Shown in pieces: positions 8,579-14,050 of a stretch of 64,000 nt of DNA. The translations under genes and the position numbers were made by a program. Source of the stretch: Dictyostelium discoideum (Eukaryota); contig CM000153.2 in the NCBI GenBank assembly GCA_000004695.1, positions 2,464,001 through 2,528,000 on the forward strand, written 5' to 3'. The notes below the pieces were generated by a model. That model had not been told where the DNA came from. It did no database searches and worked only from the letters and a program-made list of their open reading frames with translations. The stretch's first letter is position 1, and each line of letters opens with the position of its first letter.

Positions 8579-9541
8579 ATGAAACATAATTATTATATTT
8601 TATTTTTAATATTAATATCAAGTTTATTTTTATCAAATAAAGTTGTTGAATCATATGGACATCGTAATAATAATAAAGGTGGTGATTCAAAGATTTTATT
8701 AAAAGATGTTCAAGTTTTAACATTAAGATCAGGTGAAATGACAAAAGCCCGAAGATCTTCACCAATCCAACAAATGGAATGTATTGGTGGAACAGCAACA
8801 AAGGAATTAGAACTTTATCCAAAAACAATACAATGTTATAATATGGGATCAAATGGTGTTGATGTTCAATGGAAATGTGAAGCAACATTAGATTCAACAG
8901 TTAGATTAGGTACTATCGATGTAAGTTGTGAAGGTTATTCTTATCCAGAAGATCCTTATATCACTGCTGATAGTTGTGGTGTATTCTATCAATTAGAATA
9001 TACAAATGAACAAAGAAGAAAAGCAGCATTAGCTGAAGAAGAAACATCATGGGTACAAATCATTTTTTGTATTGCATTTATAGGTTTAATTTTATATGCA
9101 GTATTTAATTGGTGTGGTTCACCTCAAGGTGATGATGATAGTAATACTGCTCAAAATAATACTGCAACTGATAATAATTATCCAGGTGGTTTCCCAGGTA
9201 ATAATAATAATAATAACAATAATAATAACAATAGTAATAATAACAACTATGGTGGAAATTATCAAGGTTATCCAAATTTAAATAACAATAATAATGCAGG
9301 TGGTTGTGCTCAACCAAATAATGGCGGTGGTGGTGGTGGTGGTTGGTTTCAACCAGGTTTATGGACAGGTTTAGCTTCTGGTTATCTTTTTGGAAGAATT
9401 CATTCAAATAGGAATCATCATCATTATTATAATCCATCACCTTCATATAATAGACCTAGAAGTTCTTATAGTAGTGGTAGTAGTGGTGGTAGTGGTATAT
9501 CTTCAAGTTCTTCCTCTTATTCTGGTACTTCAAGAAGATAA
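8579..9541 (+). CDS. SARAF/TMEM66-like (DUF1183) single-pass membrane protein with an N/G/S-rich tail
   Basis: 320-aa ORF with a signal peptide. The lumenal domain 'KILLKDVQVLTLRSGEMTKARRSSPIQQMECIGGTA...KTIQCYNMGSNGVDVQWKCEA...IDVSCEGYSYPEDPYITADSCGVFYQLEY' aligns with the conserved SARAF lumenal region, with cysteines in register. A TM helix 'WVQIIFCIAFIGLILYAVFNW' follows. Confidence 0.7.
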   Translation: MKHNYYILFLILISSLFLSNKVVESYGHRNNNKGGDSKILLKDVQVLTLRSGEMTKARRSSPIQQMECIGGTATKELELYPKTIQCYNMGSNGVDVQWKCEATLDSTVRLGTIDVSCEGYSYPEDPYITADSCGVFYQLEYTNEQRRKAALAEEETSWVQIIFCIAFIGLILYAVFNWCGSPQGDDDSNTAQNNTATDNNYPGGFPGNNNNNNNNNNNSNNNNYGGNYQGYPNLNNNNNAGGCAQPNNGGGGGGGWFQPGLWTGLASGYLFGRIHSNRNHHHYYNPSPSYNRPRSSYSSGSSGGSGISSSSSSYSGTSRR

Positions 9542-10831: not shown

Positions 10832-11145
10832 TGTTTTTTTTTTTGCAATATTTTTTTTTTTTTTTTTTTTTTTCCCATTTCGCTTTTTTTTTTTTTTTTT
10901 TTTTTTTAAATTATTTTTTTTTTTTTCAATTTTTTTTTTTTTTTTTTTTTTTAACACAAAATTTCCAAATAAATAATTTTCTATAATTAGAATTTTTTAA
11001 CATATTAATGGTATTTTATTTAACTTTGTTTATTTAATAAAAAAAAAAAACTAAAAAAAAATTGTTTTTTTCCAAATTCTCCCATAACTTTTTTTTTAAA
11101 TTTTTTTTTTTTTTTTAAATTAGGAATTTAAAAAATTATTTATTT

Positions 11146-11233
11146 GCGTGTTTGATCGCTATCTGGGGATGCGTGTGGACTTCAAATCCATAGCTCGATA
11201 ACTCGAGAGTTGTTCGATTCAACCTGACGCGCG
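11146..11233 (+). tRNA. Selenocysteine tRNA (tRNA-Sec, anticodon TCA reading UGA)
   Basis: An 88-nt GC-rich island in AT-rich DNA: GCGTGTTTGATCGCTATCTGGGGATGCGTGTGGACTTCAAATCCATAGCTCGATAACTCGAGAGTTGTTCGATTCAACCTGACGCGCG. A 6-bp anticodon stem (TGTGGA/TCCATA) carries the loop CTTCAAA, giving anticodon UCA. The long variable arm is CTCGA-TAAC-TCGAG. The T-arm is GTTG-TTCGATT-CAAC. A 9-bp acceptor pairs to ...CTGACGCGC with discriminator G. It aligns block-by-block with vertebrate tRNA-Sec (GCCCGGATGATCC..TCTGGGG..GCTTCAAACCTGTAGC..AGTGGTTCAATTCCACC..CGGGCG). A TTTATTGTTTT run lies immediately 3', and an AT-rich TATA-like stretch lies about 25-30 nt upstream. Confidence 0.8.
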
Positions 11234-11244
11234 TTTATTGTTTT
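11234..11244 (+). terminator. RNA polymerase III T-run terminator for the tRNA-Sec gene
   Basis: 'tttattgtttt' directly follows the discriminator base. Confidence 0.5.
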
Positions 11245-11440
11245 AAAAAAAAAAAAAAAAGAAAAAAATAAAAAGATATCAAAAATTCTATCTGTAATCC
11301 CAAGAAAGAAAAAGATACAGATAATTGATCACTCTAAATAATAATCATATTAATTAAATATTAATAAATAAATAAATAAAAAAAAATAAATTAATATATT
11401 AAACAATTTAAAAAAATAAAATAAAAATAAAATAACTAAA

Positions 11441-11499: not shown

Positions 11500-13179
<1,680 letters not shown>

Positions 13180-13532: not shown

Positions 13533-13895
13533 TTATTCATTTTTACTGCCATTTGGATATTTTCTTTCACCATATGCTGATATATAGTTTATATCATAGT
13601 CTTTTGATTTAATAATTTGTTTTAATTGTTCAATTTCTTTTAATTTTTCTTTAAGGATTGAAACTACCAAGTTACTGGAGATATGGTAATCACCATTTTC
13701 TAAACCATCCAATTGTGAGGGATGAGTAATATTTTTATATGCATTTGGTTCTTCTAATGGAGTATTTGATAACCAAGTTTCTTTATTATCAAATTCAACA
13801 GAACATAAATTTTTATTTTTTAATGCATCATTTAATTGATTTGTTGTTTCAATTCTAATTTTTAAATTTTTTTTTATATAATTTAAAATATCCAT
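13533..13895 (-). CDS. Small hypothetical protein (~120 aa), paralog of the N-terminal domain of the 11500-13179 gene
   Basis: The real ATG is at ~13895 (MDILNYIKKNLK...); the 37 residues the track places before it start at a non-ATG codon. It shares 'HPSQL' and 'S(I/V)L(S/K)EKL(E/K)(D/E)I' with its neighbour, in the same orientation, about 350 bp upstream. Confidence 0.5.
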   Translation of the reverse strand: MDILNYIKKNLKIRIETTNQLNDALKNKNLCSVEFDNKETWLSNTPLEEPNAYKNITHPSQLDGLENGDYHISSNLVVSILKEKLKEIEQLKQIIKSKDYDINYISAYGERKYPNGSKNE

Positions 13896-13906
13896 ATTTT
13901 TTTTTC

Positions 13907-13942
<36 letters not shown>

Positions 13943-14050
13943 GTAATAAAAAAATAAATGAACTAAAATAAATAAATAAATAAATATAAAAATAAAAAAA
14001 AAACAATAGTTCAAAAATTGATTTGGCAAAGATGAAAAATAAAAATAAAA

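Follow-up and report, generated by a model that had tools for sequence, protein, structure and literature searches.

The single selenocysteine tRNA (tRNA-Sec) gene of Dictyostelium discoideum AX4 is preceded by a strict match to DUSE, the upstream element of dictyostelid noncoding RNA (ncRNA) genes, and the distance between element and tRNA is held at 66-67 nt from D. discoideum to Polysphondylium violaceum. The tRNA-Sec gene itself, and the use of selenocysteine (Sec) by this organism, are already known, having been established in 2005-2007; the new point is the conserved snRNA-type DUSE at -66, which suggests an external promoter like that of the vertebrate genes. We regard it as very probable that the locus is a functional, single-copy nuclear tRNA[Ser]Sec(UCA) gene, whose predicted promoter is mainly external and built on DUSE and whose likely polymerase is RNA polymerase III (Pol III). 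Here we describe the gene, its fold and its flanking sequences, compare them with those of orthologues in related taxa, and weigh other readings of the locus as the evidence that bears on them is presented.

Identity and genomic setting of the gene

The window analysed, a 64-kb stretch of D. discoideum DNA whose own numbering is used throughout, carries on its forward strand an 88-nt tRNA-Sec gene with anticodon UCA (Table 1). A preliminary description, made from the sequence without database searches, had proposed such a gene at about 11146-11233 and had named a Sec-specific covariance model as the means of checking it. The Sec-specific Rfam model RF01852 aligned here over its full length (1-91 of 91) with 64.2 bits, above its gathering score of 47 (E 9e-11); it was the best match for this interval within clan CL00001, beating the general tRNA model, and a custom dictyostelid model, R1, gave 115.7 bits. 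Folding energy was not discriminating (the cloverleaf, at -25.9 kcal/mol, is the minimum free energy structure, with z = -1.0 against dinucleotide shuffles), and we therefore turned to the covariance model and to covariation instead. ARAGORN, proposed earlier as a further check, called tRNA-SeC(tca) at the locus when run with a relaxed threshold (-ps), whereas at its default threshold it returned no genes over the window and so missed this one because of the bulged D-stem described below. That zero-gene result is a threshold artefact, as relaxed thresholds bring the call back, and the loss of this gene to ARAGORN at default settings is a practical lesson. The covariance model, the cloverleaf anatomy and the cross-species covariation together support the identification as tRNA-Sec(UCA) as correct.

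The gene stands out as an isolated GC-rich island, as had been remarked, with 51% GC inside it and 5-17% in its flanks. Its reported placement between a TRAX gene on the minus strand and a poly-Q gene was likewise borne out, the former being DDB_G0284837 and the latter a poly-Q/poly-N ORF. Neither Rfam nor R1 detected a second copy in the 64-kb window, and according to the literature the genome holds only one tRNA-Sec gene, in agreement with the single-copy status first assumed. The window belongs to D. discoideum AX4, as an exact match to XP_638399.1 and the neighbouring DDB_G0284837 show. Because the organism (AX4) is the same and this is the only tRNA-Sec gene of its genome, the locus must be the D. 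discoideum tRNA[Ser]Sec published in 2005 by Shrimali et al., as represented in papers citing that work; with identification resting on organism and single copy, no difference from the published tRNA is expected.

Table 1. Features of the tRNA-Sec locus, in coordinates of the 64-kb window; negative positions are relative to the first nucleotide of the mature tRNA
Feature	Position	Strand	Remarks
Translin-family gene DDB_G0284837	upstream	-	UniRef name: translin-associated protein X (TRAX)
Invariant upstream block TCTCCCATAACTTTTTTT	11078-11095	+	18 nt; same in five Group-4 taxa
DUSE motif TCCCATAA	11080-11087	+	-66 to -59; fits [AT]CCCA[AT]AA
TATA-like TAAATTA	11116-11122	+	-30
tRNA-Sec (tRNA[Ser]Sec) gene	11146-11233	+	87 nt plus discriminator G; RF01852, ARAGORN -ps, R1, covariation
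Acceptor stem, 5' strand	11146-11154	+	9 positions; partner strand 11224-11232; 8 standard pairs plus one U.U
D-arm	11157-11173	+	6-bp stem CGC-AUC/GAU-GCG, bulged U 11160, 4-nt loop UGGG (Rfam alignment, pair list)
Anticodon arm	11174-11192	+	6-bp stem 11174-11179/11187-11192
Anticodon loop CUUCAAA	11180-11186	+	anticodon TCA (UCA) 11182-11184
Long variable arm	11194-11207	+	5-bp stem CUCGA/UCGAG, loop UAAC
T-arm	11209-11223	+	4-bp stem GUUG/CAAC, loop UUCGAUU
B-box-like TGTTCGATTCA in T-arm	11211-11221	+	read from sequence
T-rich 3' flank TTTATTGTTTT	11234-11244	+	candidate Pol III terminator; T4 begins 8 nt past discriminator
Poly-Q/poly-N ORF	11500-13179	-	downstream of tRNA-Sec

Orthologues and covariation

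Orthologous tRNA-Sec genes adjoin TRAX in D. cf. discoideum, D. citrinum, D. dimigraforme and D. firmibasis (RF01852, 61-65 bits) and in P. violaceum (54.8 bits). The six taxa compared are thus five Group-4 Dictyostelium, including D. discoideum, and P. violaceum, and owing to the close kinship of the five they amount effectively to two independent lineages. TRAX homologues were matched by a 190-aa exon query, a 134-aa exon query giving no match. At the TRAX-anchored loci of D. purpureum, T. lacteum and A. subglobosum, no tRNA-Sec was detected within 10 kb (Rfam gathering and E-value thresholds, model R1), nor was one detected at the SARAF-anchored loci of P. violaceum and D. purpureum, the latter a 5.9-kb contig. 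One TRAX contig from a soil metagenome begins 38 nt before the ATG, so that its upstream region is absent. Over 120 loci matched the pattern GGACTTCAAATCC-N(12-32)-GTTCGATTC in a metagenome scan; every one was a GC-rich prokaryotic tRNA-Sec gene, with zero dictyostelid-like sequences.

Covariation among the six taxa was assessed on a model-based alignment, a MAFFT version having been set aside because its indel fell in the acceptor stem. Compensatory double changes occurred in 12 of the 30 pairs and were spread over all five helices, and 96% of cells in the alignment pair. None of 500 shuffles reached the observed level, and slid registers gave 0-2.

Fold of the RNA

The RNA folds as a eukaryotic 9/4 cloverleaf. 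Eukaryotic tRNA-Sec is defined by a 9-bp acceptor joined to a 4-bp T-stem (13 bp in all) and by a 6-bp D-stem with a 4-nt loop (PMC5330540), and in the D. discoideum RNA nine acceptor positions and a 4-bp T-stem likewise make up a 13-bp acceptor-T helix, with covariation against P. violaceum in 6 of its 13 pairs. The 9-bp acceptor first described stands as nine positions, of which eight are standard pairs and the eighth in order is a U.U (11153 opposite 11225) that is unpaired in 6/6 taxa, four neighbouring pairs showing covariation. We take U6:U67 of human tRNA-Sec to be the counterpart of this dictyostelid U.U. The D-arm had been drawn as weak, with 3-4 bp; it is indeed irregular, having a bulged U, but its stem is really of 6 bp and closes a 4-nt loop (TGGG in the gene), a variant of the canonical form in which the bulge measures 1 nt in D. 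discoideum versus 2 nt in P. violaceum. Two D-stem pairs, one on either side of the bulge, covary with P. violaceum. Both irregularities, the acceptor U.U and the D-stem bulge, are kept across the dictyostelids sampled.

The remaining parts agree with what had been read from the sequence, namely a 6-bp anticodon stem, a 5-bp variable arm (CTCGA/TCGAG), a T-loop TTCGATT and a G discriminator. The anticodon loop, for which re-reading had been advised, does present TCA at its centre, and CUUCAAA is identical across the six taxa. In the variable-arm stem, three of the five pairs show double changes, with G.U intermediates in D. citrinum and D. firmibasis. The long variable arm is thus accompanied by G73 (at 11233), the combination associated with SerRS identity; CCA is absent from the gene.

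A sceptical reading would hold that this is not a working tRNA-Sec, and that the locus is instead a pseudogene or encodes some other tRNA with a long variable arm, of the opal-suppressor or serine type. To its credit stand the rejection by ARAGORN at default settings, the bulged D-stem, which departs from the canonical eukaryotic model, the acceptor U.U, and a re-analysis of ATAC-seq data in which the gene lay in a nucleosome-free region at no stage and was termed 'constitutively repressed', pointing to closed chromatin (PMC13063481). We consider this reading highly improbable. Conservation extends to both the U.U and the bulge, compensatory evolution in all helices points to purifying selection on the fold, the 13-bp acceptor-T helix and the 6-bp D-stem with its 4-nt loop are Sec-specific (PMC5330540), and the Sec model outscores the general tRNA model. 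Moreover, this is the sole tRNA-Sec gene of a genome that makes selenoproteins, five in number (SPS2, SelK, Sep15, MSP and a deiodinase-like protein), with 75Se labelling (PMC2375036).

DUSE at a fixed distance upstream

DUSE, with the consensus [AT]CCCA[AT]AA, is reported at Dictyostelium ncRNA genes, about 60-63 nt before the RNA start, as a motif conserved across species, its three consecutive Cs being reported for Groups 1 and 4 (PMC3188802; PMC7919456). At the D. discoideum locus a strict match lies on the tRNA strand, starting at -66 and ending at -59 from mature position 1. The motif starts at exactly -66 in 5/5 Group-4 taxa, inside an 18-nt block that all of them share unchanged, while the spacer around it has diverged, and in P. 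violaceum, whose flanks are not alignable to those of the other taxa, ACCCATAA is found at -67; the conservation of DUSE at tRNA-Sec documented here covers Group 4 and P. violaceum. Strict matches number only six in the 64-kb window (both strands). Over roughly 259 kb of dictyostelid sequence they number 39, among which only the six at tRNA-Sec genes head an AT-rich spacer followed by a GC island. At a motif density of 7.5e-5 per strand position, the probability of a match in a 5-nt window is about 3.8e-4 per lineage. A proximal element shared with snRNA genes is thus present at a fixed distance upstream (-66/-67). No TGTG box was seen at the tRNA-Sec gene.

The preliminary description had also proposed a U6-like external promoter, citing a TATA-like stretch about 25-30 nt 5' of the gene and a T-run immediately 3'. 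Both strings exist (TAAATTA and TTTATTGTTTT), but in DNA of about 90% AT they are nearly uninformative, and it is DUSE at -66/-67 that lends support to the proposal. The strict match at -66, which that description overlooked, is the decisive feature for the predicted external promoter, and on the comparative evidence an external, snRNA-type promoter for tRNA-Sec appears well supported. No report linking DUSE with tRNA-Sec was found in the searchable literature, key older papers lying outside the search.

TATA-like string, T-run and internal boxes

TAAATTA is found exactly at -30 in four of the five Group-4 taxa, D. dimigraforme having TATATTA at -34; in P. violaceum there is no TATA-like box between -40 and -18. 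The background chance of a TATA-like string in that interval is 0.54, as estimated from AT-rich parts of the 64-kb window. Four or more consecutive Ts occur within 20 nt of the discriminator in 5/6 taxa (0-8 nt past it), against a background of 0.40 obtained in the same manner. Because of these background frequencies we downgraded both the T-run and the TATA-like string as support for Pol III, and TAAATTA at -30 is best viewed as a suggestive candidate for a promoter box.

Of the two internal boxes, the A box (TRGCNNAGTGG, expected at positions 8-19) has no match within the 5'-most 30 nt of the tRNA-Sec gene as read from the sequence, there being no T[AG]GC, because the 9-bp acceptor and the 6-bp D-stem displace it; such displacement is also described for vertebrate tRNA-Sec. 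The B-box-like TGTTCGATTCA agrees with the consensus GGTTCGANTCC at 9/11 positions and was termed deviant or deficient in D. discoideum by Aeby et al. 2010, and the P. violaceum sequence, GGTTCGATTCC, agrees at 11/11. No B-box-like GTTCGA string occurs downstream of the D. discoideum gene.

These internal sequences bear on the suggestion that the gene has a type 2 promoter, using internal A and B boxes and TFIIIC, and that the upstream block is unrelated to it, being for example an element of the divergent TRAX gene, whose ATG lies on the opposite strand at a distance of no more than about 250-315 nt. Such a promoter would make use of the B-box-like sequence (9/11 in Group 4, 11/11 in P. violaceum), and use of the B box is also described for the Xenopus tRNA-Sec gene (Carbon and Krol 1991, as cited in a later paper). 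An A-box match is, nevertheless, absent from the tRNA-Sec gene, as is GTTCGA from the sequence downstream of the D. discoideum gene, and the geometry ties DUSE to the tRNA rather than to TRAX: it lies on the tRNA strand, at a distance typical of DUSE-driven RNAs, and is separated from the tRNA by a constant 66-67 nt while its spacing to the TRAX ATG ranges over 179-538 nt. A type 2 promoter is accordingly a quite unlikely account of the locus.

Predicted transcription and choice of polymerase

For a mainly external promoter, we infer from the arrangement of these sequences that DUSE TCCCATAA would serve as the core of an snRNA-type promoter that mainly drives tRNA-Sec, with probable help from TAAATTA at -30 and possible help from the B-box-like sequence inside the gene. 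Given the usual gap of about 60-63 nt between a DUSE and the beginning of its RNA, initiation would be expected at, or a few nucleotides from, mature position 1. Termination probably takes place at the T-run immediately 3' of the gene, which would make the enzyme Pol III, and transcription of D. discoideum tRNA-Sec by this polymerase is likely.

DUSE does not itself identify the polymerase, since in D. discoideum it precedes ncRNA genes of Pol II and of Pol III alike, as stated in the part of PMC7919456 that cites Hinas 2006. The same observation would allow a tRNA-Sec gene that is genuinely DUSE-driven and yet transcribed by Pol II, like the U1, U2, U4 and U5 snRNA genes and the tRNA-Sec of trypanosomes. 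Aeby et al. 2010, having seen the deviant B box of D. discoideum, floated Pol II, and consistent with this the gene departs in ATAC-seq from the behaviour of 95% of tRNA genes (PMC13063481) and its P. violaceum counterpart is without a TATA-like box at -30. We judge transcription by Pol II unlikely on indirect grounds, namely the run of at least four Ts 0-8 nt past the discriminator in 5/6 taxa, the retention of TAAATTA at -30 in four of five Group-4 taxa (a TATA box being what commits vertebrate PSE promoters to Pol III), and the perfect B box kept in P. violaceum. A literature search for SNAPc binding or for the polymerase acting at tRNA-Sec yielded nothing for Dictyostelium.

In the eukaryotic Sec pathway, SerRS charges the tRNA with serine, PSTK phosphorylates the serine and SepSecS converts it to yield Sec-tRNA. 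The product of this gene would then be delivered by eEFSec to SECIS-programmed UGA codons in the five selenoprotein mRNAs of D. discoideum.

Comparison with known systems

As an RNA, the dictyostelid molecule resembles the tRNA-Sec of vertebrates (Xenopus, human) in its 9/4 fold, 6-bp D-stem with 4-nt loop, 5-bp variable stem with 4-nt loop, G73 and CUUCAAA loop, and differs from it in the bulge of the D-stem. Vertebrate tRNA-Sec genes have a type 3, U6-like Pol III promoter in which a PSE at about -70 and a TATA box at -30 are combined with an upstream activator element and, inside the gene, a B box. Their geometry is matched at the D. discoideum locus by the snRNA-type element at -66 to -59 and the absence of an A box and, as candidate counterparts, by the TATA-like string at -30, the B-box-like sequence of the T-arm and the 3' T-run. 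In contrast to the vertebrate genes, the dictyostelid element is the 8-nt DUSE, with no evident sequence similarity to the PSE, and no equivalent of the activator element or Staf site was identified in D. discoideum.

With the DUSE-driven ncRNA genes of dictyostelids, which encode snRNAs U1-U6 and Class I and II RNAs, the locus shares the strict [AT]CCCA[AT]AA motif, its three Cs and the upstream spacing; unlike them, its product is a tRNA and it is without a TGTG box. The tRNA-Sec gene of Trypanosoma brucei (Aeby et al. 2010) is, similarly, non-opisthokont and has a B box off the consensus, but it is transcribed by Pol II inside polycistrons, whereas the dictyostelid gene is a solitary intergenic GC island with an upstream element and a T-run of its own.

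Implications

As a gene, the locus is of value only for correct annotation, marking D. discoideum as a user of selenocysteine. As a promoter, DUSE at a fixed -66/-67 from D. discoideum to P. violaceum provides a concrete and testable hypothesis for the transcription of amoebozoan tRNA-Sec. The broader proposition, that dictyostelids use one element, DUSE, to drive both tRNA-Sec and snRNA genes, so that Amoebozoa would have snRNA-type wiring of this gene as vertebrates do, is one that we put forward tentatively, at somewhat less than an even chance. If true, it would answer how a D. discoideum gene with a deviant B box is transcribed, a question arising from Aeby et al. 2010, where transcription of this tRNA-Sec was stated as not analysed, and it might account for the 'closed' appearance of the gene under an ATAC-seq criterion of the kind applied to tRNA genes. 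Such wiring would then either date back to the ancestor of Amorphea or have arisen by convergence, perhaps since the 9/4 fold destroys the A box, and the parallel between tRNA-Sec and snRNA promoters would extend beyond vertebrates.

Identity and structure of the tRNA-Sec gene

A preliminary description assigned an isolated GC-rich island of 88 nt (11146-11233 (+); 51% GC, in surrounding intergenic DNA of 5-17% GC) to a selenocysteine tRNA (tRNA-Sec, anticodon UCA), and this assignment is borne out by the Sec-specific Rfam model RF01852, which aligns over its full length to 11146-11232 (64.2 bits, gathering score 47, E 9e-11) and provides the only above-threshold Rfam match in the entire 64-kb window. 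ARAGORN, which recognises just 3 bp of the D-stem owing to a bulged U, reports no gene at its default threshold and calls tRNA-SeC(tca) once the threshold is dropped to 95%. The Rfam alignment and ARAGORN anatomy agree on all points with the structure first described, and the bulge within a 6-bp D-stem accounts for the D-arm pairing that had been reported as weak. In common with eukaryotic tRNA-Sec generally (Secmarker; PMC5330540), the D. discoideum gene has the 9/4 fold, a 13-bp acceptor-T helix, the 6-bp D-stem with its 4-nt loop, and G73. Since folding energy is uninformative (-25.9 kcal/mol for both the cloverleaf and the MFE; z = -1.0 versus shuffles), the identification depends on the covariance model together with comparative evidence.

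Features of the tRNA-Sec locus; negative positions are counted from mature position 1 of the tRNA
Feature	Position	Strand	Description
ORF	8579-9541		Exact match to XP_638399.1, Dictyostelium discoideum AX4
TRAX gene (DDB_G0284837)	10831-9808	-	Apparently 3 exons: ~10831-10774, ~10700-10537, ~10383-9808
DUSE	11080-11087	+	TCCCATAA; starts at -66
TATA-like box	11116-11122	+	TAAATTA; at -30
Acceptor stem	11146-11154/11224-11232	+	9 positions: 8 standard pairs and U.U at the eighth
Linker			AU, between acceptor and D-stem
D-stem		+	6 bp, CGC-AUC/GAU-GCG; bulged U 11160; 4-nt loop UGGG
Anticodon arm		+	6-bp stem, loop CUUCAAA; anticodon UCA 11182-11184
Variable arm		+	5-bp stem CUCGA/UCGAG, loop UAAC
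T arm		+	4-bp stem GUUG/CAAC, loop UUCGAUU
Discriminator	11233	+	G; CCA not encoded
T-run	11234-11244	+	TTTATTGTTTT; directly 3' of tRNA-Sec
Downstream gene 1	11500-13179	-	Very long poly-Q and poly-N tracts; GC down to 0.00 around 12100-12199
Downstream gene 2	13533-14006	-	Shares N-terminal motif with gene 1

Genomic setting

Directly upstream of tRNA-Sec lies a Translin-family gene (translin-associated protein X, TRAX, by its UniRef name), whose exon boundaries were judged by eye on a three-frame translation. Only ~315 nt separate its ATG from position 1 of tRNA-Sec, and the two divergent genes thus have a short intergenic region in common. The two genes downstream carry a common N-terminal motif (..HPSQL....SIL.EKL.EI..), which suggests that they are tandem paralogues; a large gene followed by one of ~120 aa recurs as the same pair in three syntenic loci (L001, L002 and L005).

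Comparative analysis of the fold

Orthologous loci were fetched by anchoring on two proteins encoded nearby, SARAF and TRAX. A syntenic tRNA-Sec, divergent from TRAX, was found in D. cf. discoideum, D. citrinum, D. dimigraforme and D. firmibasis (61-65 bits), which belong with D. discoideum to Group 4, and also in Polysphondylium violaceum (54.8 bits). A model made from the five Group-4 sequences, with which all six were structurally aligned, detected no additional tRNA-Sec either in the window or among the fetched loci. In this alignment, in which Group 4 and the P. violaceum complex amount effectively to two lineages, standard pairs occupy 96% of cells, and compensatory double changes affect 12 of 30 pairs, across all five helices. 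None of 500 shuffles reached what was observed, and only 0-2 doubly changed pairs were left when the 3' partners were shifted by 1-3 columns. The sole position that never pairs, the U.U of the acceptor stem, is kept in all six taxa. The bulge in the D-stem persists too, as a single nucleotide in Group 4 and as two in P. violaceum, with covarying pairs on both sides. As judged from these sequences, covariation together with the conserved U.U and bulge strongly favours a functional RNA over a pseudogene.

No tRNA-Sec occurs within 10 kb of TRAX in D. purpureum (L127), T. lacteum (L129) or A. subglobosum (L130), so that the two genes are not universally linked; in D. purpureum, the contig anchored on SARAF (L006) stops short of the expected position. 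A metagenome scan for tRNA-Sec yielded prokaryotic genes only. Some 2.5 kb from TRAX in A. subglobosum lies an ordinary tRNA (L130, 13323-13395 (+); RF00005, 68 bits; loop CUGUUAA, anticodon GUU, Asn).

A positionally conserved upstream element

Overlooked in the preliminary description was a strict match to the dictyostelid upstream element (DUSE, [AT]CCCA[AT]AA), a motif that published work places ~60-63 nt ahead of snRNA and Class I/II RNA genes (PMC3188802; PMC7919456). All five Group-4 taxa share, without change, an 18-nt block, TCTCCCATAACTTTTTTT, whose DUSE starts at exactly -66 and around which the spacer has diverged; P. violaceum, with flanks unalignable to those of the other taxa, has ACCCATAA at -67. 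At the density of 7.5e-5 per strand position found in ~259 kb of dictyostelid DNA, a chance match in a 5-nt window has a probability of ~3.8e-4 per independent lineage. An AT-rich spacer followed by a GC island accompanies only six of 39 DUSE matches, all six upstream of tRNA-Sec.

Only six strict matches occur on both strands of the 64-kb window. The other five, at 2525 (+), 4002 (-), 7200 (-), 38966 (-) and 46867 (-), all lack a GC-rich island ~66 nt downstream, three sit in a coding-like GC context, and they look like chance occurrences. The spacing of the element varies from 179 to 538 nt to the TRAX ATG but is constant at 66-67 nt to the tRNA; DUSE thus belongs to the tRNA-Sec gene rather than to TRAX. 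Neither the window nor any fetched locus contains the Class I RNA motif CCTTACAG. No paper linking DUSE to tRNA-Sec was found in the literature searched; an earlier mention would be likeliest in Shrimali 2005, Hinas 2006 or Aspegren 2004, and we claim no priority for the observation.

Other promoter signals

The U6-like external promoter proposed earlier relied on an AT/TATA-like stretch and a downstream T-run. Both are present, but in AT-rich sequence of the same window 54% of intervals of relevant size contain a TATA-like heptamer and 40% of 20-nt windows a run of at least four T, so that neither counts as evidence alone. The TATA-like box at -30 is retained in four of five Group-4 taxa. Inside the gene no A-box match was found, and the internal B box, TGTTCGATTCA, termed deficient by Aeby et al., agrees at 9/11 positions; P. 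violaceum has the consensus GGTTCGATTCC. In D. firmibasis (L003, ~13032-13044) a B-box-like string, GAGTTCGAACCCC, lies ~40 nt downstream of tRNA-Sec, where Rfam calls no tRNA; the D. discoideum gene has no comparable downstream string. The string resembles the external 'ex-B' boxes that lie 3' of many Dictyostelium tRNA genes.

Implications for transcription

DUSE, probably acting together with the TATA-like box, would set the start of transcription at mature position 1 or very close to it. Beyond transcription, the established Sec pathway proceeds through SerRS, PSTK and SepSecS to eEFSec and SECIS-dependent delivery. Either Pol II or Pol III may transcribe the gene: DUSE serves both polymerases, being linked to Pol II as well as Pol III genes (PMC7919456), and Aeby et al. 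explicitly raised the possibility of Pol II for D. discoideum.

The D. discoideum genome encodes five selenoproteins, backed by 75Se labelling (PMC2375036). In a 2026 tRNA study, ATAC-seq placed tRNA-Sec outside nucleosome-free regions at all stages, and the gene was labelled 'constitutively repressed' because its body never falls wholly within a peak (PMC13063481). This label stands against 75Se incorporation into selenoproteins, and the ATAC-seq result conflicts with the supply of all five by a sole tRNA-Sec gene. The peak criterion may be ill-suited to a gene whose promoter lies upstream and is of the snRNA type and, more speculatively, the pattern may reflect a promoter type unlike that of TFIIIC-bound tRNA genes.

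The tRNA-Sec gene is conserved and structurally constrained, and its upstream element, of the snRNA type, is conserved in position. The sequence at 11146-11233 is a correctly identified and already known gene, published by Shrimali et al. (2005) according to papers citing that work, and the promoter observation is a small, testable addition; annotation pipelines running ARAGORN at its default would overlook dictyostelid tRNA-Sec.
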